NCBI GenBank assembly: GCA_038999725.1
Contig: JAWBWS010000001.1
Span: forward strand, 41,620-105,619
Length of the DNA: 64,000 nucleotides
Reading direction: 5' to 3'
Source of the DNA: Candidatus Aenigmatarchaeota archaeon
Lineage (GTDB): Archaea > Aenigmatarchaeota > Aenigmatarchaeia > CG10238-14 > SCSR01
The notes under the pieces are model-generated. The model saw only the letters and a program-made list of their open reading frames with translations. It was not told the origin of the DNA and did not search any database. Below are positions 1 to 20,540 of this stretch, in pieces. The position numbers and the translations under genes were made by a program. Each line of letters begins with the position of its first letter. The first letter of the stretch is position 1.

Positions 1-336
1 GAAATGACTTCTATTGTAGCTGCTATAAAGGCTATAAAAATTTCAAATACACTAAATATACCTGTTCTTGGAATAGTGATTAACAAAGTTACCAAAGGAA
101 AACATGAATTAAAAATTTCTGATGTGGAAGAGTTGTGTGAAGTGAAAGTGATTTCCACCATACCCTATGATAAAAAGATACCTGAAAGTATTAAAAAAAT
201 GACTCCAGTTGTTTTACTATATCCAAACTCACCCTCAAGTCTTGCCTTTAAATCTTTAGCAGCTTACATAATTGGAGAAGCCTATCCTAAGGAAACATTT
301 TGGGATAAATTAAGGAAAATTTTAAGATTGGGTTAA
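1..336 (+). CDS. minD: MinD/ParA-family ATPase, C-terminal part (gene starts before the window)
   Basis: VLGIVINKV...IPYDKKIPES...PVVLLYPNSPSS matches the C-termini of the two complete MinD paralogs here; ends in an amphipathic helix FWDKLRKILRLG. Confidence 0.85.
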   Translation, partial: EMTSIVAAIKAIKISNTLNIPVLGIVINKVTKGKHELKISDVEELCEVKVISTIPYDKKIPESIKKMTPVVLLYPNSPSSLAFKSLAAYIIGEAYPKETFWDKLRKILRLG

Positions 337-1480: not shown

Positions 1481-4400
1481 ATGAAAAAATTTGCAGGTTG
1501 GTTATTTTTTGTACTTATTTCTTTATTGATAATCTACATCTTAAGAACAAGGCTTACTGGCTTTTTTGTAGGTTTTGGTCCACCTGCCGGCGAATTTGAG
1601 TGGTGGAATGTATCTTGGAGATACAGGCTTAGGTTAGAAGTGAATTCCACTACATACAACAGAGTTGATTGGCCGATAGAGTATCATATAAATTTTACCG
1701 AGTTATTGCCTTCTGGCACTTTTGATGAAAATTCTATAAGAGTGATAGAATACAGCCCTTCTGGTTCAATTCTATATGAAATACCAAGTCAGTTTGAAAA
1801 AGACGAAAACTTTGACGCTTCTTCCAATGCAGTAGGAACATTAGTTTTCCTTATGAATGGGACTACACAGGCCAACTCTAAAAGGATATATTTTGTTTAC
1901 TATGATACTCAAGAAAATGGACTCAAATCTCCTCCAAATTATCCAATAGGTTTGAGATATAGTTGGGATGGTCGAATTGTTAATGTTAACAACACTATAC
2001 TTAAATTCTATTTTGACACAAATAGAGGAGAGAACACTTCTGGAATTTATCATGTAGAAGATATGGGTGGTACTGTTGTTATAACAGCAAGTCCTTCAAG
2101 TAGAACTGCTGAATATCTTGAATACTCTAATGGTACAACTAACTTAACTTTTGATTTAAGAAACAGCGTGAGTTTTTTTGAAGGACCAATAAGACTAACT
2201 ATCAAACAAGTTGGAGATGAGGTAGTTTTTGGGGATCCTGAAGAAAAAACTGGTGAAGCTAGAGTGATTAAGAAATATCATATTTACAATAAGGTAGGAG
2301 CTCAAGAATATGGAACTTTCATAAAAATAGTACAAAAAATTGAAAACATAGCAGATTTTGCTATAGAAAGAAGATCTACACCAGCAGGAGCTTTAGCTTT
2401 TGACCTCGACAGAACACTCTCTTCAGGCTCTATATACACTCTAGACTTCAATTCTTCTGATCCATATTCTTGGGTGTGGGGCTCGGGATATGGTGGAGAG
2501 ATAGTTGGTATAATCAACCTTTTAGAAGAGGGAACTTCTAAGTATTTTTCAACAAACAGCACAAGTTATGGAAGAATAGGAATCCAGCTTGACACAGAAA
2601 CTATACCTTCTGGCTCTTACATCAAACAAGACTCTTTGATATATTTTGCTGCTTGGGGTGGAAGTGATGCTGTCTCAGAATTTTTAGCAATAAAAGACAG
2701 GTTTGTCAATCCTGTCAATATTGTAGAATATTTGCCTGAAGCTTGGTATGTCACAATATCCCCATCTACAAATGCTACAATCTACAACAGAAATGAAACT
2801 GTTTTAATACTTGGAAATATTTCTCTTGGTGATCCTTACCATTTGATAAAATACATGAATGCGACCTTAGACATGGGTACACCCTCACCAGAAGATGATC
2901 AAACTATAATTTTGTACGATGATGGGACTCATGGTGATTTAGAAGAAGGAGACATGGTATTCACAAATCTTTTCTATCTACCTAATTATGCAACTATTGG
3001 TACATGGACGATTAATTTCACAACTTTCACAGAAAATTTTGAATTCTTGAACTCAACAGTCCTTGCTTTCAATGTTACAAATGTGTTAAATGTTAGTGTT
3101 GTTGTCACAAATAAAAAACCTATGGTCGGCTCAATCGTGATCGCAAACATATACCTAAAAAATTACAGGCAAGACTCTTGGATTGCCGGAGCAACTATAA
3201 ACTGTAGTTTCGATTCAAATGAAGTGATAAATAAGACAGATTACAACAATGGAACTTATTCAGTTAATTTTACTGCTCCCGCCCAAGAGGGAGAATATAT
3301 CTTGGAATGCAATGCAACTAAAAATGGAAATTTCGGAAGTGGTACATATACATTCACAGCAGAACCCGCAAACACAAGCATGATTATAGCTGTTCAACCT
3401 CAAAATCCAATCGTCTCTCATGTAAGTTTGTATGAAAATGACAGCTTTGTGATAGAAGCGAACATGAGCAACATCGGAAATGCCACATCCTATTCCACAA
3501 ACATAACTCTGGAACTTTTGAGTGGATGGTATGCGAATATAACTTTAGAGCAGTGTGGAGATGTGGAAAAGAATAGCTATTGTTTGAAGGGATTCAACAT
3601 AACTGTCCCAAATGGTACCTTACCAGGAGATTATTACATAAATATAAGTGCGAGTTGGAAGAATCCTGACCAAACAATCTCGTCAAACAAAACTGATGTA
3701 AGAGTAACAGTTGAATCAAACCCAAAAGTAGATGTTAAGCAAGAAAGGGTTTCTTCTGAATGTGGAGATGGAATTTGGAGCATAGTAGGAAATTTCACAA
3801 TTTTGTCGATAGGAAATGATGCTTTAGAAGGTATTACATTCTCTTGCGTTTCTGGTGAAGTTTGTGAGAATTTTGTGGTTAAGTTTATACCAGAAAGTAT
3901 ATCTAGCATACCCGTGGGAGCAAATGAAAATGTCTCAATAAATGTTACAATACCCTTAGGCTTTACACCTGGAACTTATGAGGGAATTGTGAATGTTTCT
4001 GCTAGCAATGATGGTTTTGATACTTTTATTCTTGAAGTTCGTGTTCCACCAAAGACCAATGTTTCCATAGTATCAAACATATCAAGCTACACTGCAAGCA
4101 AAATAACGAAAGAGGATAATGAAACTTTTTATTTCGAGATTAATGCAACAAATATAGGAAATGGAAGTGCAAGATTTGTAAATATAAGTGTTTCTCCTCC
4201 TCTTGGTTGGCTTGTAATGCCAAGCTTAGAAGAATGTGGAAATCTTATAAAAGATGCTAGTTGCCAGAAAGAGTTCAATGTAACAATTCCTGGAGCCACG
4301 TCACCAGGAAATTATTTAGTAAATATTTCAATAAACTGGACCCAGTCAGACAATTCCATGGGAACAAATAAAACTTCTATAACAGTAGCTGTAACTTCAA

Positions 4401-7345: not shown

Positions 7346-7352
7346 CTGACTA

Positions 7353-8222
7353 TTATCCAGATGCGTAGACAGTTAGAGTTGCAACATTGAGGTTGCCACT
7401 TGGAATCCCATAGGGAGCGTAAACATTCAAGGTTAAAGTGTGAATATTGCCAGGAGGAAGACTATACTCTTGTATGTATCTAGAGTTTGCACAAGAAGTA
7501 AAACCACTTCTTTTATCGTATTTGTAAATGTAAATTTTTGTGCAGTCATAGTAGGCGGCAACACAGCTTCCGTAGAGCGGAGCAGTAGCTCGATTTACAC
7601 TGAAGTAACCCCAATTGACATCTCCACTATCAAGTTGTATGTTACTTGTTGTTGGGGTTCTTGTTTCTACAGTACCATTGTCAACATCATCTTCTATTGC
7701 AAATTGTGCTCCGGTATTGTTGCAATAGCCATTTGTACCGTTACCGAGAAGCCATATATACTCAAAACTTGTGTTCTTGAAGAAACCCCATGCTACCGGA
7801 GAATTCACATTATTTTTTTGTAGGTTTGATATTTCTTCTGTCCAGTTCCACTCTATTCTGCCTGCAAAGAAGAATTTGTTATATGTCTCGTTCTTAAGGA
7901 CTATTACTCCACCTGCTGCATACTCTGTTGCATTGCTCGAACCATAAGGTCTTTTAGTTTCGTCTGTTAAAGTGTCTACATAAGCATAGATCTGAGTGAC
8001 ATTCAAAGAGCCGATGTTAATGATGTCTAAAAGCTTGGTACCACCTGTCTGACCGGGCTGCACGTTTGTCCATGAAAGGACACTTGGTACTACAGATATT
8101 TGGGCAACAGTTTTTACACTAACATTTATTGTTGCTGTATCATTCACGTTTTCCGCTCTAACGTTTGTTAAAAATGCTAGAAAAGTTATCAATAGGGATA
8201 AGCACAAGGCTTTTTCATTCAT
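7353..8222 (-). CDS. Secreted pilin/fimbrial-like protein, paralog A
   Basis: Signal peptide, no C-terminal anchor; N-terminal strand TATINVSV then ISVVPSVLSWTNVQPG; C-terminal VYAPYGIPSG...TLTVYASG. Confidence 0.6.
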   Translation of the reverse strand: MNEKALCLSLLITFLAFLTNVRAENVNDTATINVSVKTVAQISVVPSVLSWTNVQPGQTGGTKLLDIINIGSLNVTQIYAYVDTLTDETKRPYGSSNATEYAAGGVIVLKNETYNKFFFAGRIEWNWTEEISNLQKNNVNSPVAWGFFKNTSFEYIWLLGNGTNGYCNNTGAQFAIEDDVDNGTVETRTPTTSNIQLDSGDVNWGYFSVNRATAPLYGSCVAAYYDCTKIYIYKYDKRSGFTSCANSRYIQEYSLPPGNIHTLTLNVYAPYGIPSGNLNVATLTVYASG

Positions 8223-8958
8223 TCTCTCCTATATATTATTGTTAATCATAGCATTTAAACATTAGTATTAAATATTAATTTAAAAGAAAAACAATATAAT
8301 AATGTGAAAAAAGATAAAAAAGAGGCCATACTTAATGTTTTGAAGGCAAACCCGGATGGTTTGACCATCCAGGAAATTTCCAAGCTTACTGGAATGAGTA
8401 GAATTACTACTACAATTTATGTTCATGAGCTTCTTGGGGAAGGAAAAATCACTGAAAGGAAGATTGGAGCCTACAGGCTCTTCTATCTGAAAGATAAGTA
8501 TTTGGAAGTGGTAAAAGAAAAGGAAATTCTAGAAAAAATAAAAGAAAAAATAAAGTAGTCTGGTTCTAGCCAGATGCGTATACTGTGAAGGTTGCTGTAC
8601 TGAGACTACCATCCGGAATTCCATATGGTACGTAAACTCTTAGTGTTAGTGTGTGAGTTTCACCTGGCACTAAGTTTGGTGCTTGTATGTATCTAGAGTT
8701 TGCACAAGAAGTAAAACCACTTCTTTTATCGTATTTGTAAATGTAAATTTTTGTGCAGTCATAGTAGGCGGCAACACAGCTTCCGTAGAGCGGAGCAGTA
8801 GCTCGATTTACACTGAAGTAACCCCAATTGACATCTCCACTATCAAGTTGTATGTTACTTGTTGTTGGGGTTCTTGTTTCTACAGTACCATTGTCAACAT
8901 CATCTTCTATTGCAAATTGTGCTCCGGTATTGTTGCAATAGCCATTTGTACCGTTACC
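7469..8958. repeat. 277-bp identical block shared by paralogs A and B
   Basis: 7469-7745 is identical to 8682-8958 (offset 1213); further identical patches at 7762-7802/8975-9015 and from 7834/9047. Confidence 0.9.
8304..8558 (+). CDS. Small winged-helix (HTH) transcription regulator, divergent from paralog A
   Basis: ILNVLKANPDGLTIQEISKLTGMSRITTTIYVHELLGEGKI plus wing; GTG start. Confidence 0.8.
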   Translation: MKKDKKEAILNVLKANPDGLTIQEISKLTGMSRITTTIYVHELLGEGKITERKIGAYRLFYLKDKYLEVVKEKEILEKIKEKIK

Positions 8959-9789
8959 TAAAGCCCAAAAATATTCAAAACTTGTGTTCTTGAAGAAACC
9001 CCATGCTACCGGAGAGTTTATATTTGAAAGATCTTTATTTCCCACATCTTCTGTCCAGTTCCACTCTATTCTGCCTGCAAAGAAGTAAGTAGAATCAGTC
9101 TCATTTTTGAAGACTATAACCCCACCAGCTGCATATTTTGTTGGGTCATCTTTTCCGTAAGGCCTTTCAGCTTCGTCCGTTAATGTGTCTACATAAGCAT
9201 AGATATTGGTCACATTTACAGAGCCTGTGTTTATTATGTTTAGATATTGTGCTGTTCCAGCACTCCCTGGATTAATATTAGACCAAGATAAGCTCTCGGG
9301 TATTACCGAGATTTGTGCGACAGCTGCAACACTTACGCTAACAGTAACTGTATCTTCTACCGCTAATGTTAATGGGGGAAAGAGGAGAAAGCTGATAATC
9401 ACTAGAAGAATTAGCTTCTCGCAACTTTTGATTTTAACATTACTGTAAACCTTCATATTTAATATTTTTGTTAATACTATTATTTAAATCTAATGTTTCA
9501 AATGATTTTTCGATTGGTATTTATTTAAAGAAGAAAAATTGATGATAAAAGCTAAAGCAACATTAATTTTAAATGCTAAGTTAATAAATACCCTTAAACA
9601 AAAATATTAAATATGGAAGATTTTAAGCAAAAAATTCTTGAAATTCTTAAAAAAGAACCAAGGGGTTTAACAATTCAAGATATTTCAAGGCTCGCTAAGA
9701 TGAATAGATTTAAAGCTACAATTTATGTTCATGAGCTTCTTGGGGAAGGAAAAATCACTGAAAGGAAGATTGGAGCCTACAGGCTCTTC
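8410..9789 (+). repeat. 74-bp identical block shared by the two HTH genes
   Basis: 8410-8483 is identical to 9716-9789. Confidence 0.9.
8566..9456 (-). CDS. Secreted pilin/fimbrial-like protein, paralog B
   Basis: Clear paralog of 7353-8222; signal peptide; TVTVSVSV...ISVIPESLSWSNINPG. Confidence 0.6.
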   Translation of the reverse strand: MKVYSNVKIKSCEKLILLVIISFLLFPPLTLAVEDTVTVSVSVAAVAQISVIPESLSWSNINPGSAGTAQYLNIINTGSVNVTNIYAYVDTLTDEAERPYGKDDPTKYAAGGVIVFKNETDSTYFFAGRIEWNWTEDVGNKDLSNINSPVAWGFFKNTSFEYFWALGNGTNGYCNNTGAQFAIEDDVDNGTVETRTPTTSNIQLDSGDVNWGYFSVNRATAPLYGSCVAAYYDCTKIYIYKYDKRSGFTSCANSRYIQAPNLVPGETHTLTLRVYVPYGIPDGSLSTATFTVYASG

Positions 9790-9807
9790 AAACTGAAAAA
9801 AGATTAA
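9613..9807 (+). CDS. Small winged-helix regulator, divergent from paralog B
   Basis: Paralog of 8304-8558. Confidence 0.8.
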   Translation: MEDFKQKILEILKKEPRGLTIQDISRLAKMNRFKATIYVHELLGEGKITERKIGAYRLFKLKKD

Positions 9808-10076
9808 ATGTAAATTATGAATCCTTCCTTTTCCAATTCCTCTAGAACTGGAGCCAAACCTACTTTTGCCTCTTCTGTTGAAATATTGGCCAACTTTGCC
9901 ACTTCCTCTGCTATTTGATCAAAAGTTTTTTTCCCATCACACATCATTATAAGTTTAACAAGCCATTTTTCTATCTTCCACATTTTACTTCCATCAAAAG
10001 TAGCATAGTAAGTACCTAAGTGATCTATAATCTTCAAATTCTTCGCTTTCAACGGTCTTTTTTCTTCCATAAACAC
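9804..10076 (-). CDS. PqqD-like / winged-helix small protein
   Basis: CDGKKTFDQIAEEVAK...LEELEKEGFI pattern. Confidence 0.5.
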   Translation of the reverse strand: MFMEEKRPLKAKNLKIIDHLGTYYATFDGSKMWKIEKWLVKLIMMCDGKKTFDQIAEEVAKLANISTEEAKVGLAPVLEELEKEGFIIYI

Positions 10077-10106
10077 TTATTTTAATTTTAAATAAATAGT
10101 TTAAAT

Positions 10107-11042
10107 ATGCGATTTGGCTTGGTCATGGTGTTTGTAATTTTGTTGTTTTCGATTCCTCAGGCCCTGGCTGTAGAATTTACTGTTGGTGTTTCTCCTAATA
10201 TTTTAGATTTGGGTGAAATAGAGGCCGGTTCTACAAAGTTGGTAAAATTTTTCCTAGTTACTCCTTCGTCCGAGCCTTTATTGGTTTATCTTGAACCTGA
10301 GAATGGTAATCTAGACTTCTTTTCCAGGGATCAATATAACCAGCTTCTCTTTAATTATTCGGAAGAGGAAGTAACAAGTTGGGTAGAATTTTTATCAAAC
10401 CCTATAGAGCTTAAACCAGCTAACGAGACTTTAAAAACTAGAGGAGGGGAAATAAGGGGATGGAGAGAAATTAGTTTTCTGTTGAATGTGCCAAGAGAAG
10501 CAGAGCCTGGATACCATTTGCTTAAGATAAAACCTTCCCCCTATGTTCCGTCTGAAACACTCGGCCAAGCTGGGGCAAGAGTTGTAGCTATAACTTCTGT
10601 TACCATTTTGTTCAATTTGCCAGGAGAGATTAGAAGGGAGGGTGTAATCCTTGATGTAACCCCAGGAAAACATCTTGGCGACAGGCTTGAAATAAACACA
10701 TATTTCAAAAATAGCGGTACAGTCACAATTTCCGCAAAAGCCTTTCAAGGCGTTTTTAAAGATGGTGAGTTAATAGAAAATCTAACCTCACCGATTCAAT
10801 TTGTTAAACCTGGTGAAGTTGCAATTTTAAAAACATTTCTACCTTCAAGCAAAATCTCATCTGGAGAGTTCTTGATTGCCACGACAGTGAGTTATACTAC
10901 AGGCTCAGCATCAAAAAATTCAACTTTAGTGATAAAAGCTGCTCCGCCTATAATAGAAAAGCCTGTAGAATTTCCTTTATGGATAGTGATAATTATTTTA
11001 ATAGTGTTGATAGCAGTCTTGATATACAAGTGGTATAAATGA
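10107..11042 (+). CDS. Membrane-anchored surface protein with two beta-sandwich domains (DUF916/DUF3324-like or chaperone-like)
   Basis: Signal peptide; VGVSPNILDLGEIEAG; FKNSGTV; VKPGE; C-terminal TM followed by basic residues. Confidence 0.55.
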   Translation: MRFGLVMVFVILLFSIPQALAVEFTVGVSPNILDLGEIEAGSTKLVKFFLVTPSSEPLLVYLEPENGNLDFFSRDQYNQLLFNYSEEEVTSWVEFLSNPIELKPANETLKTRGGEIRGWREISFLLNVPREAEPGYHLLKIKPSPYVPSETLGQAGARVVAITSVTILFNLPGEIRREGVILDVTPGKHLGDRLEINTYFKNSGTVTISAKAFQGVFKDGELIENLTSPIQFVKPGEVAILKTFLPSSKISSGEFLIATTVSYTTGSASKNSTLVIKAAPPIIEKPVEFPLWIVIIILIVLIAVLIYKWYK

Positions 11043-11554
11043 GGAAGAAGATTTGGTTACCGTTATTTATTTCAATTTTTTTAATTTTATTCACCTTGTT
11101 AACCAATCTTCCCTATCAGCCAAAAGGTTTAGTTGAAAACAGAACTTTTGAGAAATATTATGATCTCTTCTTCACATACGAAATAACAAGATATCCAACT
11201 TCAGCACAAGTTCTTCCTGCTCAACCAAATCATGAAAAGCTAACTTTAGGTGTTGTGGTTGATCCTTGGAACTTAAATTTTGGGATTGTTCCTGCTGGCA
11301 AAAATTTTGTTACTAGATTTGTTGATTTAACAAATCTGAAAGAAAAAGATGCTAAAATCATGGTTAGAGTTTATGGCAATATTTCACCTTTCGTCAATTT
11401 CACAAAAAACAATTTTATCCTCAAGCCAAATGAAAATGCCATGATAGAGGTTAAATTTTATGCTGAGAAAGCAGAAATTGGTAATTATTCTGGTGAAATA
11501 GATGTTGTTGTGCAGAGGCCAAGATATGATTTCTTGTATTACTTCTGGAAGTAG
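11039..11554 (+). CDS. Membrane-anchored Ig-like surface protein
   Basis: N-terminal TM; VVVDPWNLNFGIVPAG; GNYSGEI; ATGA overlap with the upstream gene. Confidence 0.55.
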   Translation: MRKKIWLPLFISIFLILFTLLTNLPYQPKGLVENRTFEKYYDLFFTYEITRYPTSAQVLPAQPNHEKLTLGVVVDPWNLNFGIVPAGKNFVTRFVDLTNLKEKDAKIMVRVYGNISPFVNFTKNNFILKPNENAMIEVKFYAEKAEIGNYSGEIDVVVQRPRYDFLYYFWK

Positions 11555-12299
11555 GGGAATTGTAATCTTTCTGCTTTTTTCCCTCTTATTTTTCTTTTCT
11601 CTATCGAGGGCAGCTATAATTGAAGTTGACGTCTCCAGAAATCTTGAAGGAAAAATAAGCTCTTTTTCCTGTGATTCATCTAAGGATTTGATTGCATTCT
11701 ATCTTGAATTTTACAACACTGGCAGCATAGCTTATAGAGCAAGGGTGAGAGTTGATATCATTAACAATTCTAAAATCGCTTTCACTGCATGGAGTGGAGA
11801 AAAAATTTTGATGCCAGGAGATAGAAAAAATTTTGAAGTTTATTTGTATGACAATTCCACAGGCAATATTACAGTGAGAGCAAGGATATACTTTGGAAAT
11901 GAAATTGAGGAAAGAATTTTATCTGTAAAAAAAGAAAGCTATTTTTTGTCGCAAGATATTTTTGAAATAAAAAATTTCAGAACTTATGATAATTTTGTTG
12001 TTTTCGATATCAAAGCTAGAAGAAATGTAAAGGATGTTGTGGTTATACCTCATGGCTTCCCTCAAAGCTGGATATTTGAACAGAAGAAAATTAAGTTCTT
12101 GAAGGAAAATGAAGAAAAAACCGTGGCTCTTAACTATAATCCAGCTGTTTGGAGCGAGGAGAAATTAACTTTAATCGTAGCTTCGGATGGGGGAAAGTAT
12201 AAAACTGAAAAAACTTTTGAAATGAGAAAAGAAGTTGGAATTATCTGGCTCATTCACTACCTCATTGATAAACTCAAGCTATTTTTCAACTCGGCTTGA
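11502..12299 (+). CDS. Secreted Ig-like surface protein (start possibly 11526)
   Basis: Hydrophobic signal; FYNTGS and LMPGD motifs; hydrophobic C-terminus. Confidence 0.55.
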   Translation: MLLCRGQDMISCITSGSRGIVIFLLFSLLFFFSLSRAAIIEVDVSRNLEGKISSFSCDSSKDLIAFYLEFYNTGSIAYRARVRVDIINNSKIAFTAWSGEKILMPGDRKNFEVYLYDNSTGNITVRARIYFGNEIEERILSVKKESYFLSQDIFEIKNFRTYDNFVVFDIKARRNVKDVVVIPHGFPQSWIFEQKKIKFLKENEEKTVALNYNPAVWSEEKLTLIVASDGGKYKTEKTFEMRKEVGIIWLIHYLIDKLKLFFNSA

Positions 12300-12321
12300 T
12301 TAAAGTTCTTAAGATTTTTTC

Positions 12322-12391
12322 ATATTGTAACAATATAGTAACCATAATAAAGTAATATTTAAATATCAATAAAACAATATTGTAACTATAT
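12322..12391. promoter_or_regulatory. Palindromic operator pair flanking a TATA box upstream of an HTH gene
   Basis: Perfect palindrome ATATTGT-A-ACAATAT at 12322-12336; one-mismatch copy at 12377-12391; TTTAAATA at 12358-12365 between them. Confidence 0.6.
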
Positions 12392-12605
12392 GGAAAAAGG
12401 GCTTGTAGACAAAAGTATAGAAGAAAAAATCATCCAAATTCTGAGCAAAAGGATTGTGTCAACTTCTGAGCTTGCGAAAGAGCTTGGGATTAAGAGATAT
12501 GTTCTTGTTGGTTACTTGGAAGCTATGAAGAATCAGGGTAAGCTTGAATTCCACAAGGTTGGTAAGGCTAATGTTTATACTGTTGCCAAAGGTGAGAAAA
12601 AATGA
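12390..12605 (+). CDS. Small winged-helix regulator heading an operon
   Basis: IIQILSKRIVSTSELAKELGIKRYVLVGYLEAMKNQGKL plus wing. Confidence 0.8.
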   Translation: MEKGLVDKSIEEKIIQILSKRIVSTSELAKELGIKRYVLVGYLEAMKNQGKLEFHKVGKANVYTVAKGEKK

Positions 12606-14953
12606 AGAAATTAACTTTAGTCACATTTTTGCTCGGGATTTTGGTTTTTTCCAGTTCGGCTTTAGCTTCTCCTACAATTAATGAAATAAAGTTCAGACCA
12701 TCATCGGAAATTTGGATAGAGGAAGCACTTGGAATTGAAGTGAATTGCACAAATGGTTTGAAAGTTAATGCAACCCTAATTGGAGAAAGTGGTAGCACAA
12801 TTTACATAGAAAATTTCACATACAATCCAACAAATAGTTTATTTACCACGAAAATAGATCCGACTTATTGGGGAGGCCAGCCCAATGTTTTCAGGACAAT
12901 TATCAGTTGCTTGGACGAATTTAACAACATCGCCCAAAATGAAACCAGATTTAGTGTTTCAAGCTTGAATGTAAAGATTAGTGGGATTCATCCAAGTACA
13001 ATATATCTTGGTGATGTAGTAGAAGTTGATATTTTAGTTGAAAGGAACGATGAACCAATTAACTCTACTGATGTTAAGTTTAAAATAATTGTTGATAACA
13101 ATGAAATTGAACAACCAGAAGTAAGGTTATATGACCCGTCTGTTGGTTGGAAAATCTTCTTCAATTCTTCAAAAATTCAAAACCCAATTGGAACGCACAA
13201 TTTACAAATAACTGTGTTTTATGGTAGAGTTAATCTCACAAAAACCGCAAGCTTTACAATTAATGAAACAATACAGTTTTCAATTGTAAATGTGGACAAA
13301 ACTTGGGTGAAGCCAAATGAAACAATTAATCTAAAAATTCAAGCTTTTGAAAAGGGAAATATAATACAATTAACCTCAGAAAATCTTGTAATTAAAATTG
13401 GTAATACTCAAGCAACAATTGTTGCTATATCTCCTCTTGCTAATTTCTTCAGTGTCACTATCCTTGCACCAAGCTTATCTCCTGATAGGTATTCTTTAAC
13501 TGCCTTTCTTTCACATAAGAATTATACTTACACCAGTAGTTCAACTATTTACTACATTGTTCAAATAACTGGAAAATTTGTGGATGAAAATGATAAAGGA
13601 ATTCCAACAAGAATTAGCTTTTTCTCTGATGGAGTAGAAAAACTTAGGATTTATACAGATGCATCAGGATCGTATTCAGGAAACTTATCGCCAGGAACTT
13701 ATGATATCGAGTTTGTTTTTCCACATTCCACTTTGCGCTTATATGAAGCCGAAATAAGCAACTTTGAAGACCCTGTGAAATATTATTATTTTGACTCAAT
13801 TGAGTTAGAAGGCTTAAACGTTGCTAGTTTGTTTGTTTATGAAACCGATTTGAACTATTACAAAGCTTCGATTGAAATGAAATATGATGAAAGAAATGTG
13901 TTGGATGAAAATTTGTTAAAAGTTTATAAATGTGAAAATTGGAACTCTGGCAGAAAGGAATGCTACGGTAAATGGAATGAAATTCCTGCAAGCGTTGACA
14001 AGATGAGAAACACAGTCTATGTGAACACAACAAGCTTGTCTGCCTATGCTATTGGAACTTTGGGAAAACTTTCAATTGATTTCAATTTGAATAAACAAAT
14101 CTTTTATCTTAAAGATTTGGTTAAGGTTAGGGGGATGGTTGTAGATGAGTATAGAAATCCTGTGAAAAATGCTAGCGTAAACATTCAAGTAAAAAACACT
14201 TCTATCAAACAAAAGGTTTTTTCAGATAGCAATGGTTTATTCACAATAGAATTCTTATCACCAGACCAAGAAGGAAATTATTCATTAATTTTAGTTGCAG
14301 AAAAGCATCCTTACATAAGTTTCAATTCCACCTTAACTTTGGGTGTGGTGAAAAGAAAAGAAATCTCAATCGTTTTTCCAGATACTATAAGAGTAAATCA
14401 AGGGGAGAATTTCACTCAAGAGTTTAGTGTGATAAACATAGGTCAAGCTGAACTTTACAATTTAAGTATTTCTTTGGAAGAAATACCAAGCAATTACTAC
14501 AAATTGCAAGAAAAAATAGAAAAGCTTGAAGTTGGTGAAGAGAAAAAGTTGCAAATAGAATTTTTCATTCCAGTTAATGCTTCTGCTGGGACTTCAAGCG
14601 GGAAGATAAAGGTTTTCAATGAAGAGGTTTCTAAAGAAAAATTGTTTGGCTTCACAATAATTGAGAGAAATGAGACTCGGGAAGCAAAAACGATGCCAGT
14701 TGGTTTCTTTGGAAGAATAAGTTTACCACAAATATCCCAAAACTACGCTTATCTTCTGCTTTTTGCTGCAATTTCTTTTTCTTTAGCCTTCTCGCTCAAA
14801 AAAAGGAAAATCAAATCTCAAAGCAGGGAAGAAATCAAAAATTCTCTTCTTGATATCAAAGAATTTTTGGAGGAGAGGAAAAATAGAGCTCAGTCGATGG
14901 AAACCCAACCTTCAGAAGAAATTTTGGAAGCAAATGAAAAAGGGGTTGGTTAA
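12602..14953 (+). CDS. Large membrane-anchored surface protein (Ig-like, carboxypeptidase-regulatory-like and PGF-pre-PGF-like domains)
   Basis: Signal peptide; TDASGSYS and SDSNGLFT repeats; W...VNTTSLSAYAIG; C-terminal TM. Confidence 0.65.
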   Translation: MKKLTLVTFLLGILVFSSSALASPTINEIKFRPSSEIWIEEALGIEVNCTNGLKVNATLIGESGSTIYIENFTYNPTNSLFTTKIDPTYWGGQPNVFRTIISCLDEFNNIAQNETRFSVSSLNVKISGIHPSTIYLGDVVEVDILVERNDEPINSTDVKFKIIVDNNEIEQPEVRLYDPSVGWKIFFNSSKIQNPIGTHNLQITVFYGRVNLTKTASFTINETIQFSIVNVDKTWVKPNETINLKIQAFEKGNIIQLTSENLVIKIGNTQATIVAISPLANFFSVTILAPSLSPDRYSLTAFLSHKNYTYTSSSTIYYIVQITGKFVDENDKGIPTRISFFSDGVEKLRIYTDASGSYSGNLSPGTYDIEFVFPHSTLRLYEAEISNFEDPVKYYYFDSIELEGLNVASLFVYETDLNYYKASIEMKYDERNVLDENLLKVYKCENWNSGRKECYGKWNEIPASVDKMRNTVYVNTTSLSAYAIGTLGKLSIDFNLNKQIFYLKDLVKVRGMVVDEYRNPVKNASVNIQVKNTSIKQKVFSDSNGLFTIEFLSPDQEGNYSLILVAEKHPYISFNSTLTLGVVKRKEISIVFPDTIRVNQGENFTQEFSVINIGQAELYNLSISLEEIPSNYYKLQEKIEKLEVGEEKKLQIEFFIPVNASAGTSSGKIKVFNEEVSKEKLFGFTIIERNETREAKTMPVGFFGRISLPQISQNYAYLLLFAAISFSLAFSLKKRKIKSQSREEIKNSLLDIKEFLEERKNRAQSMETQPSEEILEANEKGVG

Positions 14954-15733
14954 ATGGTGAGAATAATTGATGTTTGCTCTGGAAAGGGTGGTGTGGGTAA
15001 AACAACAATAGTAGCTAATTTAGGTTTAGCTTTAGTTGAGCTTGGAAAAAAAGTTGCTATTGTTGATTGTAACTTAACAACTCCACATTTAAGCTTGTTT
15101 TTTGGAACTTATTCCTATCCCCTGACCCTAAACGATTTTTTGAGGGGAGAAGCAAAATTTGAAGATATAGTTTATACTCATCTTTTTGGTTTAAAAATAG
15201 TACCAGCCTCCCTTGAGTTAAAAGATTTGATTGATATTGATGTTGGCAATTTAAGAGAAAAGTTAAGAGAAAACTTCAAAGATTTTGATATTGTTTTACT
15301 CGATTCTGCCCCAGGTCTGGGAAGAGAGGCCTTAATAGCATTGCAAGCAGCTGATGAAGTTTTATTTGTAGCAAATCCATTAATTACTTCTTTAATTGAT
15401 GTAGTTAAATGCAATCAATTAATTAATTCTTTGCACCCTAAACCAGTAGCTATAGGAGTTGTTTTAAACAGGGTGAAGAAAAAGACTTATGAGATATTGG
15501 TTGATGAAGCTAGACAGTTTACAGAATTGCCTGTTATCGGGACGATTCCTGAAGATGAAAAAGTTCTAGAAAGCACTAACAAAAGAACTCCTGTTTTGAT
15601 TTCACACAAAAATTCTCCTGCAAGTAAATCAATTTTTGAAATTGCCGCAAAGCTGGCTGGGATAGAACACAAGAAGCCCAAGCTTCTAGAAAGGTTTTTT
15701 GAAATTTTCAAAAGGTGGAAAAATGAGAGTTGA
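14954..15733 (+). CDS. minD: MinD-family ATPase
   Basis: Deviant Walker A SGKGGVGKTT; LLDSAPGLG; amphipathic C-terminal helix LLERFFEIFKRW. Confidence 0.9.
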   Translation: MVRIIDVCSGKGGVGKTTIVANLGLALVELGKKVAIVDCNLTTPHLSLFFGTYSYPLTLNDFLRGEAKFEDIVYTHLFGLKIVPASLELKDLIDIDVGNLREKLRENFKDFDIVLLDSAPGLGREALIALQAADEVLFVANPLITSLIDVVKCNQLINSLHPKPVAIGVVLNRVKKKTYEILVDEARQFTELPVIGTIPEDEKVLESTNKRTPVLISHKNSPASKSIFEIAAKLAGIEHKKPKLLERFFEIFKRWKNES

Positions 15734-17621
15734 AGTAAAATTTTTTTTGTTGGCTTTAATTTTCTTCTTTCTTGTCTTTAAATCGGTATCTTTTTCAGAA
15801 GGAATAGACCCAACATCACAATTCAATCAAACTTCTTCTACAAACATCACAGGAAATGCTTCTACTATAGACCAAGCAACAATAGACTCTTACTTGAATT
15901 TCAATGGGGATGGTTTAACTTGGGATGTTACAGAAGCACAAGTTGGAACCAATTATACTTACCCTGTCGCAAATCAAAATTTCACTTCTGGGGCTTATGG
16001 TTGGACTTATGGTGAAGAAAACGATGTTAACAATATGGCAACTGGTGCATGGGATCCAGATTCAGGGAGGATAGACCCAGGGAGTTATAACTTTAGTATT
16101 GTAGATACTTCAGCTACACTTATTGCACAGGTAAATCAATATATAAACTACTCTTTTACAGTTGATAATACAGCTGACCTAGTTTCAGCAACAGCTTATG
16201 CAAGCTTTCGTCTAACTTGCACGGATGACCAACTAGTTTATGCAAAACTCAATTTAATTTTGCCGAATGGTGAAGTTTCAAACCTTTGGACTTCTCAAAC
16301 CTGGCAAACTACCAATCCTTTAGACACAGGTTGGTTAAATGTAAGTGTTAATGTGCTTTCAAACTTTACTTCAAAAGGAATAGGTACTTATCAATTGAGT
16401 TTAATGATTCATACAGAAACAGATGATGCGGGTAAAAACGCTCAAAAAACTACATGCTATCATTACCTGGATGATGCAGGAGTTGAATTAAGTTATCCTG
16501 AATATCAAATTTCAATAGAACACAATGCAACAATAAGCTATTCCGGATCTTTAAACAGTATAAATGTTTCAGTAAACTTTACCTCCACGGTTGACGATGT
16601 ATATCAGTTATACATCTATAATTTTACGGATTCGACCTGGGATTCAAATCCATGTGAATCCCAGGTTGCTATTGCAAATACTTACTATACAAAATGGTGC
16701 AATGTCACAATAAACCCGCAAAACTACATTTCTGAAAATAAGGTGGTAAGGGTAAGACTCAATTCTACTGTTGATAGTGATAAAGGAACTTTAAAGGAAG
16801 AATATGTCCAATTTTATGTTGGTTATTCGGTAGGTTATTTGGAAGTTAGGCTAGTTCTGCCCAGTACAGAAACCATAAATAATGTGATTCAAAACTCTTC
16901 TTTTCTCGTTAACGCGACTGTTTTTTGTAGAAATGCTCCTTGTGGTAATATTTATGGTACTTTGTTGTATAACCTATCTTCTTCCTATCCAGACACGCCA
17001 ATAAATACAAGCTATGGAGATAAACCTTTTTTCGTCAATGAATCTCCAGCTTATGCAATAAAGCCTTGTCCAAACAATCCCTTGAATGCAAACGACTTTT
17101 GTAATTTAACTTGGGTTGTAAACGCTTCTGGTGAAATAAGTACTGATTGGAAAATTGGAGTCTATTTCAATTCTTCTTACACAGAAGTTCAACCAAATTC
17201 TACAAGCAATGCAACCCTCTCAATAGTTTCTTGTACAGTTGATTTCAGCTTAAGTTGGTCTTCCATAGATTTTGGTGAACTTTTGCCCAATACTCACAAC
17301 AATTCAGCTCCTGGGAATGCAAATAATGTTTACAACATAACAGTAAATCCAGGCAGCTGCAACTTAGACCTTTACATAAGAGGCACAGATTTGATTAACT
17401 CAACTTTTGGCTCAGTGATAAAAGTTGGGAACATAAGTTGGAGTAACATAAGCAGTAATTTACAAGACGGTTATTTCCAGTTAACAGAAACAAATTCTGT
17501 GATCAAACTTAATGTCCCAGAAAAAACCAACATTACAACTTGGTATTGGCTGAGTGTTCCTCCTGTGTATGCAGGCTTCTATACAGGAACAATCTACATC
17601 ATGGGGGTAAAACATGAATAA
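15723..17621 (+). CDS. Secreted adhesin-like protein with C-terminal pilin-like domain
   Basis: Signal peptide from ATG 15723; C-terminal domain FSLSWSSIDFGELLPN...YWLSVPPVYAGFYTGTI; no TM anchor. Confidence 0.6.
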   Translation: MRVEVKFFLLALIFFFLVFKSVSFSEGIDPTSQFNQTSSTNITGNASTIDQATIDSYLNFNGDGLTWDVTEAQVGTNYTYPVANQNFTSGAYGWTYGEENDVNNMATGAWDPDSGRIDPGSYNFSIVDTSATLIAQVNQYINYSFTVDNTADLVSATAYASFRLTCTDDQLVYAKLNLILPNGEVSNLWTSQTWQTTNPLDTGWLNVSVNVLSNFTSKGIGTYQLSLMIHTETDDAGKNAQKTTCYHYLDDAGVELSYPEYQISIEHNATISYSGSLNSINVSVNFTSTVDDVYQLYIYNFTDSTWDSNPCESQVAIANTYYTKWCNVTINPQNYISENKVVRVRLNSTVDSDKGTLKEEYVQFYVGYSVGYLEVRLVLPSTETINNVIQNSSFLVNATVFCRNAPCGNIYGTLLYNLSSSYPDTPINTSYGDKPFFVNESPAYAIKPCPNNPLNANDFCNLTWVVNASGEISTDWKIGVYFNSSYTEVQPNSTSNATLSIVSCTVDFSLSWSSIDFGELLPNTHNNSAPGNANNVYNITVNPGSCNLDLYIRGTDLINSTFGSVIKVGNISWSNISSNLQDGYFQLTETNSVIKLNVPEKTNITTWYWLSVPPVYAGFYTGTIYIMGVKHE

Positions 17622-18210
17622 ATTAAAATTAACTACACTCTTGCTTTTCCTCTTGATTTTACCACAGGCAAAAGCAATTAGCTTAGGAACAGTTTTGAAG
17701 AAAGATTATGCAACCATCAAAGCTAATGAGTCAACAAAATTTGAAATTTTATTTTGGAATGTAGAAGAAGAAACTTATGAAATTCAAGTTGAAGTTGATA
17801 AAGCCCTAAAGGATTGGTTCATCAAAATAGAACCTCAAAAATTCTTGCTCAATTCTTCAGCTGGGAAAGAATACATAAACTTGCCCAATTTTGAAAAACC
17901 TGTCAAGGCTTCTGTTGTTAACATTTTTGTGAAACCAGAAAATACAGAACCTGGGGAATATAAGATTTTGGTAAGAGCAAAAGCCGGTCTTCCCTCTCAA
18001 GGTATAGCCTTTTTTCAAGAAAGGGAATTTGAATTGAAAGTGAAGATAGAAGGTAAAACCCAAGAAGTTGAAAATAAAACTTTAGCTATGTCGGAAGAAA
18101 ATTTCTACTTTAAAGGAAAGTCTGTTGGAGAAATTTCTCCTACACTCTCTTACATTTTGGCCATCATCTGCATTTTAGTGATTTCTGCCCTAATATATAA
18201 ATATGCGTAA
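17614..18210 (+). CDS. Membrane-anchored Ig-like surface protein
   Basis: Signal peptide, PGEYKILVRA, C-terminal TM. Confidence 0.6.
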   Translation: MNKLKLTTLLLFLLILPQAKAISLGTVLKKDYATIKANESTKFEILFWNVEEETYEIQVEVDKALKDWFIKIEPQKFLLNSSAGKEYINLPNFEKPVKASVVNIFVKPENTEPGEYKILVRAKAGLPSQGIAFFQEREFELKVKIEGKTQEVENKTLAMSEENFYFKGKSVGEISPTLSYILAIICILVISALIYKYA

Positions 18211-19447
18211 GAATCTTTTAGCTGTAGTTTTAATTCTTCTCTTCATTTCAATCTTTCTTGCAAGGAATTTTCTTACAACTATTGGTCTGGGACTTTTGAG
18301 CATGATAAATGTCTCTATCCAAGAAAAAATAGGAGGAAAACTCCTCTTATCATACAAACAATTTATTGAAATTGGTAATCAGCAAGAAATCTACACAGAA
18401 TTCATAAACATTGGTACTTCTCCTCTAACAGAAAGAATTGAAGTTAAAGTTTACGGTTATGTGAATGGAACTCTTAAACCTTTAGCTTATTATTACGATA
18501 TTTCGGTTCCTCTTCCTTCTGGAGGTAGAAAAGGGTTTCTAAGTATTTTCATGCCACCAGACACAGGTTTATATTACATACAAGCAAAAGCAAGCTATGA
18601 TACAAAAGTCTTGGAAACTTGGGGGGCTTTTTTGGTCCATCTTCCACCCCCTCCCGTAATTTATGTACCAACACCTGTTTCTCTACCCACTCCTCCTACC
18701 CCCATTGTTGGTGTACCAGATTTGAGCTTAGAATACCCGAAGCTTATTGAGTTTTACCCCGGGGAGAAAAAGTTAATAAATATAACAATAAAAAGCGTGG
18801 GAACTGCTTCACTACACAATCTTAGGCTCTACACTTCCACATCTTCTTTGATAAATGTCTCTGTTTTTCCGAAACAAATTCTTGTATTGAGTCCAAATGA
18901 AACTTCAATTTTCATAGTTTCAATTGAGGTACCATCGACAACAGAAGATGGGATTTATCCACTTGAATTTGAAACAATGAACGATGAGGGGATAAAAAAG
19001 AAGGGAGAAATTTCTATCAAAGTTATATCTCTTCCACCTTCAGAAGAAGGAGAAATTTCTGAAAAAATTTTGAATTATGAATTCTTGATATCAGAAATTC
19101 AGAGAGAAATAAATTACGCCTCCTTTCAAGGCTATGATGTTGAGCTTGCAAACAAAAGTTTGAGTATGGCAAGAATTAGCCTTGAAAATGCAAAAGGTTA
19201 TCTTAAATTGAAAAGGATTCAAGATGCTAAATTGGAATTGAAAAAAGTTGAAAAATATATTGAAGATTCTGCACTCCAACTCGCAAGCTCCCTACTTTAC
19301 ATTTACAAACCACCAGCAATACTTTGGTGGTTAATTATCTCCATAATCATCTTGATAGCTTCGATAATTTTAGTTTACTTGTACTTTAAAAAGAGGAGGA
19401 GAAAAAGACCCAGGTTGTTAGAAGGGGTAGAGGAAATAGAAAAATAA
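18203..19447 (+). CDS. Membrane-anchored surface protein (CARDB/NEW3-like domains, Pro-rich linker, coiled coil)
   Basis: Signal/TM; FINIGT; Pro-rich stretch LPPPPVIYVPTPVSLPTPPTP; C-terminal TM followed by KKRRRKRPR. Confidence 0.6.
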   Translation: MRKNLLAVVLILLFISIFLARNFLTTIGLGLLSMINVSIQEKIGGKLLLSYKQFIEIGNQQEIYTEFINIGTSPLTERIEVKVYGYVNGTLKPLAYYYDISVPLPSGGRKGFLSIFMPPDTGLYYIQAKASYDTKVLETWGAFLVHLPPPPVIYVPTPVSLPTPPTPIVGVPDLSLEYPKLIEFYPGEKKLINITIKSVGTASLHNLRLYTSTSSLINVSVFPKQILVLSPNETSIFIVSIEVPSTTEDGIYPLEFETMNDEGIKKKGEISIKVISLPPSEEGEISEKILNYEFLISEIQREINYASFQGYDVELANKSLSMARISLENAKGYLKLKRIQDAKLELKKVEKYIEDSALQLASSLLYIYKPPAILWWLIISIIILIASIILVYLYFKKRRRKRPRLLEGVEEIEK

Positions 19448-19468: not shown

Positions 19469-19717
19469 ATGGGACTATTTGGGCCCTTCGTTTACAAGTC
19501 CAAGAAAAATGGCCAAAAATTTTGGCTTCATATGAAGGTTAAAGGGAATGCAAAAATCTATTATTTTTCAAAAGACCCTACTGGAGCTATTTTCGATTTG
19601 CCTCTAGGCTATGAAGTTGTGGAGAATCCAAAAACTGGAATGCCTTTCTTAAGAAAAAAGACTTCTGGATTTTTTTCTTTTTTCAAAATAAAAAAAAGAG
19701 AAGTTGAGAAAAAATAA
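19469..19717 (+). CDS. Small basic hypothetical protein upstream of minD
   Basis: 82-aa ORF; IYYFSK...LPLGYEVVENPKTGMPFLRKK pattern; amphipathic GFFSFFK tail. Confidence 0.6.
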   Translation: MGLFGPFVYKSKKNGQKFWLHMKVKGNAKIYYFSKDPTGAIFDLPLGYEVVENPKTGMPFLRKKTSGFFSFFKIKKREVEKK

Positions 19718-19745: not shown

Positions 19746-20540
19746 ATGGCAAGAGTAATTGGAATAGTTTCTGGTAAAGGTGGTGTTGGAAAAACAACTT
19801 TAACCATCAATCTAGGTTCAGCCCTTTCCCATTTTTTCAAGAAGAAAGTTACTGTTATTGATTGTAACATAACAACTTCTCATTTAGGCTTATACCTTGG
19901 GATGTATTATTGCCCAATAACTTTAAACAAGGTCTTAAGAGGGGAGTCAACAATAGATGAAGCAGTTTATGATCACTACAGTGGAATGAAAGTTGTGCCA
20001 GCTTCGCTTTCTATTAGTGAGCTTGAAGGGGTGGATGTAACTTTATTAAGGGAAAGTATAAAACCATTAGAAGTGAAAAATGACATAATATTGCTTGATG
20101 GTAGTCCTGGATTGGGAAGAGAGGCTATGGCTTGTCTTAAGGCTTGTGATGAGGTATTATATGTCACAACACCCTATGTGCCATCTGTCATAGATATAGT
20201 AAAATATCAAGAGGTTGTGAGTGAGCTTGGTTTGAAGCCTGTGGGCATTGTTTTGAATGTAGTTGATAGAGCAAGATATGAAATGAATATAAAAGAAGTG
20301 GAAGAATTGACACGTTTACCTGTTCTTGCCTCTATTCCATATGATAAAAATATCAAAAAAGCCCTTTCGCTCAAGATGCCTGTTGTGTTGTTGAACAAAA
20401 ATTCTCCAGCCAGCAGGGAAATGATAAAATTTGCTGCAAGACTTGTAGGTGAAGAATATAAATCAGATAGCTCTTTCTATAGAATAATGGAAAGGTTGAG
20501 AAACTTCATGAAGTTTAGGGCTTCTCTAGGTCCTGTTTAA
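19746..20540 (+). CDS. minD: MinD-family ATPase
   Basis: SGKGGVGKTT; LLDGSPGLG; amphipathic C-terminal helix. Confidence 0.9.
   Translation: MARVIGIVSGKGGVGKTTLTINLGSALSHFFKKKVTVIDCNITTSHLGLYLGMYYCPITLNKVLRGESTIDEAVYDHYSGMKVVPASLSISELEGVDVTLLRESIKPLEVKNDIILLDGSPGLGREAMACLKACDEVLYVTTPYVPSVIDIVKYQEVVSELGLKPVGIVLNVVDRARYEMNIKEVEELTRLPVLASIPYDKNIKKALSLKMPVVLLNKNSPASREMIKFAARLVGEEYKSDSSFYRIMERLRNFMKFRASLGPV

Follow-up and report, generated by a model that had tools for sequence, protein, structure and literature searches.

It was not until 2026 that pili assembled by usher-free, chaperone-assisted strand exchange were described, in Gram-positive bacteria and in bacteria of the candidate phyla radiation (CPR), and each system was reported to be restricted to its lineage. 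In the Elr pilus the membrane-anchored chaperone ElrE, a WxLIP protein of the architecture DUF916-DUF3324-transmembrane (TM) helix, primes WxL pilins by donor-strand complementation; the pilins polymerise via a 15-residue N-terminal strand, the tip adhesins combine a variable payload with an invariant C-terminal module, and the authors found the system only in Bacillota (bioRxiv 10.64898/2026.10.17.759780). The Pam pili of CPR bacteria, described for Ca. Mycosynbacter amalyticus, consist of the pilins PamA/B/E, the chaperones PamC/D, the tip protein PamT and the anchor PamR; the chaperones are PapD-like and membrane-anchored, the anchored terminator carries an extra N-terminal strand, and the pilins were reported to be exclusive to CPR bacteria (bioRxiv 10.64898/2026.03.03.709456, first posted March 2026). 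A chaperone-type assembly route has not yet been described in archaea, and a literature search found no work linking DUF916 to archaea. Here we analyse a locus in the genome of a Candidatus Aenigmatarchaeota archaeon (GCA_038999725.1), located on a stretch of 64,000 nt (contig JAWBWS010000001.1, positions 41,620-105,619, forward strand; termed the window), which may encode an archaeal relative of these systems.

Positions 1481-19447 of the window form one locus, encoding ten exported beta-rich proteins together with three winged-helix genes, a PqqD-like gene and a MinD gene (Table 1). Four of its parts resemble parts of the bacterial systems: a WxLIP-like protein of 311 aa beside the subunit genes, paralogous subunits bearing an N-terminal strand, a 640-aa protein with a variable head and a DUF916-like partner, and an anchored 414-aa protein with a subunit-like strand. 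Because the locus holds these four parts, we tentatively read it as a new archaeal variant of chaperone-assisted donor-strand systems that would build a fibre or an adhesin stalk, a reading to which we give not quite an even chance. The more specific proposal of a chaperone-dependent donor-strand-exchange pilus in Archaea, with an unnamed pilin family, a WxLIP-type chaperone, a head-variable adhesin, positioning by MinD and a function in host attachment, is possible and carries more doubt.

Both the locus and the Elr system (structures 9i1y, 9i25) encode, beside the subunit genes, a two-domain protein anchored in the membrane by a C-terminal TM helix (the 311-aa protein here, ElrE there). Both have two paralogous subunits exported by Sec, in which an amphipathic strand of about 11-15 residues immediately follows the signal peptide, and a large protein (here the 640-aa protein) whose N-terminal payload varies and whose C-terminal module is conserved; an usher is absent from both. 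The locus differs from Elr in its host, which is an archaeon, and in its subunit, which is not a WxL domain and whose strand shows neither the Elr consensus [S/T]-x-[G/A]-x-[V/I]-x-F nor a Phe14-type residue. Furthermore, the Pfam thresholds for DUF916 and DUF3324 are not reached, TM-anchored proteins take the place of LPxTG/sortase anchoring (no LPxTG motif occurs in the exported locus proteins), and the locus adds giant anchored proteins, MinD ATPases, winged helix-turn-helix (wHTH) regulators and an HExxH membrane protein.

The resemblance to Pam begins with the host, in both cases an ultra-small, presumably symbiotic cell without an outer membrane. Chaperone-like proteins with two beta domains and a C-terminal TM helix are found in both, the 311-aa protein matching FimC, CupB2 and CfaA; RbmA, which has the fold of PamR, is among its top fold matches as well. 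In addition, the subunits contain paired cysteines, and the layout of the Pam terminator (extra N-terminal strand plus C-terminal TM helix) recurs in the 414-aa protein. In contrast, the Pam pilin has two domains and an internal linker donor strand, whereas the subunit described here is modelled as a single sandwich with a large insert, and its candidate donor strand is N-terminal.

Likeness to the chaperone-usher pili (PapD/FimC; Fim/Pap/Csu) is architectural only and concerns the principle, in which a subunit with an incomplete Ig-like fold, a chaperone of two domains and a donor strand at the N-terminus work together. Unlike these, the locus has no usher and no periplasm, and its chaperone-like protein is membrane-anchored; Pfam scans of the locus proteins returned neither usher nor PapD_N families. 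TasA fibres, archaeal bundling pili, Sulfolobus threads, Pyrodictium cannulae and haloarchaeal Tafi are non-type-IV filaments in which beta-sandwich proteins, often glycosylated and exported by Sec or Tat, donate strands to one another. The subunit comes closest in fold to TasA and CanA; these matches are weak, and no relation at the family level was found. None of these filaments has a WxLIP-like chaperone gene, and Tafi loci contain a signal peptidase and a DUF5305 protein, neither of which was returned by the Pfam scans here. Having no WxL domain, no Pfam-level DUF916, no LPxTG motif, no usher and no M73 protein, the locus thus lies outside the Elr, Pam, TasA and chaperone-usher families proper.

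Little is known about how DPANN archaea attach to hosts or surfaces, and no member of the Aenigmatarchaeota is in culture. The locus occupies about 20 kb of a 730-kb genome (93% complete), or more than 60 kb if the neighbouring gene for a 12,990-aa product is counted; this size, together with its conservation in about a third of the sampled genomes, makes it a concrete and testable candidate for an attachment apparatus. If our reading is correct, an archaeal counterpart would widen the usher-free assembly principle across domains, and the anchored-chaperone route would be common to Bacillota, CPR bacteria and DPANN archaea, via ancient descent or via transfer between organisms of similar lifestyle. 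A defined protein pair for co-expression and imaging would then be available in the 290-aa subunit and the 311-aa ectodomain.

A WxLIP-like membrane protein is encoded next to the subunits

In the AlphaFold2 (AF2) model of the 311-aa protein (pLDDT 86.8) a signal peptide is followed by two beta-sandwich domains and then by a TM helix at the C-terminus. In a Foldseek search the three best PDB matches were all WxLIP of Enterococcus faecium (9i25_C, 9i1y; E 6e-12 to 1e-10, TMt 0.49-0.55), one of them from a complex of WxLIP with a long WxL protein (E 6e-12, TMt 0.55). The next matches were RbmA, HYDIN-type immunoglobulin (Ig) proteins and the three chaperones named above (E ~1e-7). Searching 5.8e9 sequences with the profile of the 311-aa family retrieved a PF06030-positive protein of 354 aa with the same architecture (P0381; E 5.5e-5), which passes the Pfam cut-off for WxLIP_PGBD. 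The hhalign comparison of the family with P0381 gave 98.3% over 251 columns, with the motifs ISP..DL, IP.EAEPG and N.GT in common. The comparison with WxL/DUF916 clusters drawn in the original prediction was therefore apt, since the protein has WxLIP as its best fold match and is a remote relative of a DUF916 protein. The gene product itself has no Pfam match, a genome-wide PF06030 search gave no match in the 10107-11042 gene, and a PDB sequence search with the family profile yielded nothing meaningful; likewise, none of the 311-, 265-, 198- and 640-aa proteins was assigned to a family by Pfam or NCBIfam.

The 311-aa gene lies adjacent to a subunit gene and is divergently transcribed from it in the window and in 30 related loci (within 10 kb). 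Between the two domains of the protein the AF2 model has a hinge: pLDDT drops below 50 at residues 151-157 and is followed at the domain junction by long, alternating strands (residues 159-171). This region is conserved as GQVG..VVA.TSV..LF.VPG...R.G, with R177 invariant. By analogy, the position of the hinge strand may correspond to the donor strand of ElrE (residues 139-153); it is the candidate donor strand of the 311-aa protein, which is itself the candidate chaperone or anchor of the subunits.

P0381 is encoded on a metagenome contig (L049:1480-4752), between a 374-aa secreted Thr/Ala-rich protein without a family match (P0382) and a TIG-repeat protein; this neighbourhood looks like another chaperone-plus-subunit cassette. 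No sequence relation was found between the subunit and P0382. In the genome studied here a sub-threshold PF06030 match (14 bits, G000:C2:149657-149791) lies inside a 1,224-aa glycosylated surface protein.

The subunits start with a conserved strand

The AF2 model of subunit 1 (pLDDT 87) is a beta-sandwich in which the first and the last strand flank a large insert, and four cysteines are invariant in its homologues. An alternating beta-strand had been predicted at the N-terminus of both paralogs, and this was confirmed: the pattern D-T-[VA]-T-[VI]-x-V-x-[VI] is strongly conserved, with 100% occupancy in 235 homologues, and in most of them it starts 2-6 residues after the AxA site. Its hydrophobic positions 30/32/34/36 carry 1.9-3.5 bits, a conservation equal to that of the core strands. 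According to DSSP the strand is unpaired in the AF2 monomer of subunit 1. The other end of the protein is constrained as well, with the C-terminus located 1-3 residues past the last strand in 199 of the 235 homologues. Within 7353-9807 the two subunit genes, 75% identical overall, each stand opposite a small wHTH gene of their own.

Neither Pfam nor NCBIfam has a match to the subunits, and PDB sequence searches with the single sequence and with the family profile gave no meaningful match. The top Foldseek match is the TasA fibre (8aur_A; E 7.8e-3, probability 0.84, TM-score 0.26/0.31), which is weak. All 50 fold matches listed are weak; they contain five donor-strand fibre subunits (TasA at rank 1, CanA twice, the FimD-tip chain 9fy9_F and CfaB) and no WxL chain. 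The modelled likeness to donor-strand fibre subunits is suggestive only. Membership in the TasA/Peptidase_M73 family was rejected, since PF12389 is absent from the subunits and from the genome (E<=1); the same holds for the WxL domain, with no Pfam match in the subunits and no match to PF13731 in the whole genome (E<=10). The original prediction had drawn comparisons with TasA, Csu-type and WxL systems; the subunit is no member of the TasA/camelysin, Csu or WxL families, and its fold likeness to TasA, CanA and Fim subunits is weak.

Locus content and conservation

All open reading frames (ORFs) named in the original prediction are present at their coordinates. Each of the ten exported proteins (gene starts 1481, 7353, 8566, 10107, 11039, 11502, 12602, 15699, 17614 and 18203) begins with an N-terminal hydrophobic signal or anchor, in agreement with that prediction, and a pattern check of the ten found no class-III-like, LPxTG or PGF-CTERM motif. 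A hydrophobicity scan located C-terminal TM helices in the giant, 311-aa, 198-aa and 414-aa proteins; in the 783-aa protein a hydrophobic stretch close to the C-terminus can be seen in the translation and stays below the scan threshold. Type IV pili and archaella can be set aside, with no class-III-like N-termini in the locus and the four T2SSE ATPases found in the genome encoded elsewhere, so that the description as a non-type-IV surface locus is retained.

Synteny was investigated in 40 loci of species-representative genomes and four metagenome loci. The order giant, subunit, (HTH, PqqD-like), 311, 171, 265, HTH, 783, MinD, 640, 198, 414, 82, MinD is kept and persists down to 38% subunit identity. 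In 30 of 41 non-redundant loci both the subunit gene and the 311-aa gene are present, and most of the others are interrupted by a contig end. Lack of synteny in relatives had been set beforehand as grounds for giving up the prediction; since the order is conserved in related loci, these grounds fall away. The giant gene stands tail-to-tail with the subunit gene in most loci, the 171-aa gene is present in 30 loci, the 198-aa gene directly follows the 640-aa gene on its 3' side wherever both occur, and in 12 loci the PqqD-like gene is conserved at its place, with the subunit genes on one side and the operon on the other. Winged-helix regulator 3 shows 51-94% identity among the loci that have it.

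Searches with the subunit family gave 256 close homologues, none of them named, and 400 representatives of clusters formed at 50% identity; public homologues carry the label Candidatus Aenigmatarchaeota. In related genomes subunit identity is 38-82%, and several of these genomes have 2-5 subunit copies. Of 301 genomes sampled from the phylum, 97 have the family; among those of high quality the figure is 33 of 98, and by genus it is 48 of 151. The system is accessory and not a universal envelope layer, and its presence in a third of the high-quality genomes suits an accessory appendage.

A candidate adhesin, a candidate base anchor and a web of Ig domains

Orthologues of the 640-aa protein range from 339 to 1880 aa, and only the region of query residues 380-640 is conserved in all of them; some of the heads contain PQQ or BNR propellers. 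The protein itself has 31 sequons. A variable N-terminus on a conserved C-terminal region fits the idea of a tip adhesin put forward in the original prediction. The claim that the protein ends in a copy of the subunit module fared less well: an instance of the motif is there, and the profile link to the subunit core is weak. The hhalign values are 0.6% for the whole C-terminal region and 20% for the subunit core against the last domain, and homology between subunit and C-terminal region is thus unsupported.

The 198-aa protein resembles domain 1 of the 311-aa protein (94% over the full length, 81% for the ectodomain only). Direct homology to P0381 was not detected; the two are linked only via the 311-aa family (81-94%). 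In the 414-aa protein the TM helix is located at residues 373-391. Its domain 1 matches domain 1 of the 265-aa protein (98.8%), which has an alternating IEVxV strand right after the signal peptide, and its domain 2 matches the NEW3-like domain of the 783-aa protein (97%). For 311-aa domain 2 the counterparts are domain 1 of the 265-aa and domain 1 of the 414-aa protein (96%). With the 170-aa insert removed, the profile of the subunit core matches 414-aa domain 1 (93%), the 171-aa Ig domain (76%) and 311-aa domain 2 (72%); the first of these alignments takes in the N-terminal strand. BLASTP furthermore shows the 414-aa protein to be homologous to the C-terminal region of giant-protein orthologues in related loci.

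The motif shared by five of the exported proteins had been proposed as a donor-strand signature. A pattern search found all five instances at the places given; the interpretation did not survive. The corresponding profile region (43-80) matches 20 times in a single 2737-aa ASH/HYDIN/Cep192/CARDB Ig-repeat protein, and the 171-aa protein matches HYDIN_VesB_CFA65-like_Ig (E 4.8e-5) and, weakly, the PapD-like and ASH families of Pfam. What recurs in the five proteins is thus simply the usual first strand of such Ig domains (ASH/PapD/CARDB type), and the reading of the motif, taken alone, as the mark of a donor-strand module was rejected.

Proposed mechanism and alternative explanations

As an archaeal variant of chaperone-assisted donor-strand systems, the locus would work like the usher-free pili of Bacillota (Elr/WxL) and of CPR bacteria (Pam). 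The two subunits, of about 265 aa when mature, would be exported by Sec, cut after AxA and N-glycosylated. The hinge strand of the 311-aa protein would bind each new subunit and keep it ready for assembly, and subunits would join head to tail, with the N-terminal strand (D-T-V-T-V-x-V-x-V) going into the preceding subunit. The 640-aa protein would serve as adhesin, with its own DUF916-like partner encoded alongside (17614-18210). A subunit-like N-terminal strand is borne by the 414-aa and perhaps by the 265-aa protein; since the former has a TM anchor too, it would terminate the fibre and attach it to the membrane. The giant and the 783-aa anchored proteins, together with the MinD ATPases, might organise or position the structure from the cytoplasmic side.

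Several observations weigh against this reading. The role of WxLIP-type proteins as chaperones rests on two preprints from 2026, and in the 311-aa family PF06030 is matched by none of the 27 members and PF11797 by a single one (E 0.006, weak). The subunit matches no WxL, TasA or Pam family, and its fold finds no PDB match that reaches E 1e-3 (best TM-scores 0.26-0.31). The N-terminal strand occurs in the anchored 414-aa and in the 265-aa protein as well, and could be the regular first strand of this type of Ig domain; mutual-information covariation between the strand and residues 275-280 gives weak hints of antiparallel pairing (173 sequences, Meff 134, z 3-4). Finally, the 640-aa protein departs from the tip subunits of Elr and Pam in that its C-terminal domain shows no detectable homology to the subunit (0.6-20%).

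The strongest competing explanation, which we hold to be unlikely, is a complex for display that does not polymerise: the WxLIP-like 311- and 198-aa proteins would only anchor secreted glycoproteins, as monomers or small oligomers, amid Ig-stalk proteins. This would agree with the older model of WxLIP as a linker that binds WxL proteins and host surfaces, (PMC10599100), and with the arrangement of the locus, in which every secreted protein neighbours an anchored DUF916-like protein. The subunit core is moreover of the same Ig kind as complete domains of the anchored proteins, and a significant pilin fold match is missing. Display by itself does not account for an amphipathic N-terminal strand of 11 residues that ranks with the most conserved parts of the subunit, for the lack of a pairing partner of this strand in the AF2 monomer, or for the tight constraint on the C-terminus; in addition, newer experimental work recasts WxLIP as a polymerisation chaperone.

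It is improbable that the subunits form a matrix fibre like those of TasA, archaeal bundling pili or cannulae, self-assembling outside the cell by donor-strand exchange without a chaperone, with the anchored neighbours being unrelated or acting as nucleators. The conserved N-terminal strand and the fold matches (TasA at the top with probability 0.84, CanA twice) would be accounted for, and in the literature searched the known archaeal strand-donation filaments are described without a chaperone. Yet these matches have TM-scores of 0.26-0.31 and an E-value of 0.008, no Peptidase_M73/TasA match exists in the subunit or the genome, the Pfam scans of the locus proteins returned no signal-peptidase family, and the strict adjacency of the WxLIP-like gene would be ignored.

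Most improbable is an S-layer-like envelope with the 290-aa glycoprotein as lattice and the anchored Ig/coiled-coil proteins as stalks, like SlaA/SlaB in Sulfolobales: glycosylation, richness in Ig domains and strong conservation of the proteins would fit, as would the stalk-like coiled coil and TM helix at the end of the giant and of the 414-aa protein, and for DPANN an S-layer protein with Ig folds has been reported that lacks known homologues, whereas the subunit is distributed too patchily for a main envelope layer (33 of 98 high-quality genomes, 48 of 151 genera), its identity of 38-82% is unusually high for S-layer proteins, and the WxLIP-like partner would have no role.

Further genes of the locus

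The range 1481-19447 given in the original prediction covers the core genes; the true extent is larger, running off the 5' end of the window and reaching at least position 20540. On the 5' side the locus continues with the GTPase-like and HExxH proteins (322-1432), a third MinD (1-336) and, upstream of the window, the 12,990-aa ORF.

Table 1. Features of the locus in the window (positions are those of the window).
Feature	Position	Strand	Basis or remark
Third MinD-type ATPase, 3' end	1..336	+	gene starts upstream of the window
Membrane-tethered small GTPase-like protein, 220 aa	322..984	-	N-terminal TM segment; Pfam NOG1
Three-TM protein with HExxH, 147 aa	989..1432	-	TM scan, orthologue alignment
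Giant glycoprotein, 1954 aa	1481..7345	+	N-terminal signal/anchor, many Ig-like domains, coiled coil, TM helix, 85-aa cytoplasmic coiled-coil tail
Subunit paralog 1, 289 aa, secreted glycosylated beta-sandwich with 170-aa insert	7353..8222	-	AF2
Candidate donor strand of subunit 1, residues 28-38, DTATINVSVKT	8109..8141	-	conservation, DSSP
Winged-helix regulator 1, 84 aa	8304..8558	+	HTH_24 28.4 bits, above cut-off; syntenic
Subunit paralog 2, 296 aa	8566..9456	-	75% identity to paralog 1
Candidate donor strand of subunit 2, residues 35-45, DTVTVSVSVAA	9322..9354	-	same conserved columns as in paralog 1
Winged-helix regulator 2, 64 aa	9613..9807	+	HTH_24 and IclR HTH, weak; 72% identity to regulator 1
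Cytoplasmic PqqD-like small protein, 90 aa	9804..10076	-	PqqD E 2.8e-4, below cut-off
WxLIP-like membrane-anchored two-domain protein, 311 aa, candidate chaperone/anchor	10107..11042	+	AF2, Foldseek, hhalign
Hinge strand of the 311-aa protein, residues 158-170, RVVAITSVTILFN, candidate chaperone donor strand	10578..10616	+	AF2, inference
171-aa protein, N-terminal membrane anchor and one ASH/PapD-like Ig domain	11039..11554	+	Pfam
265-aa exported two-domain protein	11502..12299	+	hhalign
Winged-helix regulator 3, 71 aa	12390..12605	+	HTH_11, pRN, FaeA-like, all weak
Multi-Ig glycoprotein, 783 aa, hydrophobic stretch near the C-terminus, charged C-terminal tail	12602..14953	+	Pfam
Archaeal MinD-type ATPase 1	14954..15733	+	TIGR01969 226.7 bits, cut-off 201.75
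640-aa secreted protein, variable head, conserved C-terminal ~260 aa, candidate adhesin	15699..17621	+	orthologue comparison
198-aa protein, signal peptide, one domain like 311-aa domain 1, C-terminal TM helix	17614..18210	+	hhalign
414-aa protein, subunit-like N-terminal strand and Ig domain, Pro-rich linker, NEW3-like domain, coiled coil, TM helix; candidate base anchor	18203..19447	+	hhalign
82-aa small protein, paired with MinD2	19469..19717	+	synteny
Archaeal MinD-type ATPase 2	19746..20540	+	CbiA, ParA, AAA_31; 45% identity to MinD1

Dedicated regulators and MinD ATPases had been predicted, and both were recovered by winged-helix matches and a TIGR01969 score above the cut-off, respectively. 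BLASTP with MinD1 and MinD2 additionally matched the third MinD (G000:C1:41200-41955, ending at window position 336), and a MinD is present at the same place in locus L001. The roles proposed here for the MinD ATPases, the giant anchored proteins, the HExxH protein and the regulators are putative, and so is the function as a base protein that the original prediction gave to the giant.

In Pfam the 783-aa protein matches CarboxypepD_reg (52.7 bits) and has a NEW3-like domain, and the giant protein contains NPCBM_assoc three times and MG2; the latter has 82 sequons and its TM helix at residues 1851-1869. The 220-aa GTPase-like protein scores above the NOG1 cut-off (33 bits), matches MMR_HSR1, Arf and Ras too, and is syntenic in loci L001, L006, L032 and L042.

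The gene for the 147-aa protein adjoins the giant gene in at least 11 loci. The protein has no Pfam match; in 12 orthologues HE[MILFS][GS]H, located in or at TM1, is invariant, and an Asp in TM3 is conserved. Judged by this miniature site-2-protease-like signature it is a candidate intramembrane metalloprotease, and it could be a processing protease of the locus.

The 82-aa gene is conserved beside MinD2 in 11 loci. Its product has no family match and may be a partner of MinD; it has an amphipathic basic tail, and a shorter paralog is encoded elsewhere in the genome (C1:209021-209212). The 12,990-aa ORF upstream of the window (G000:C1:758-39730) contains 608 N-glycosylation sequons, is similar in part to the 1954-aa giant protein and is syntenic with the gene for a 13,738-aa product in L001.

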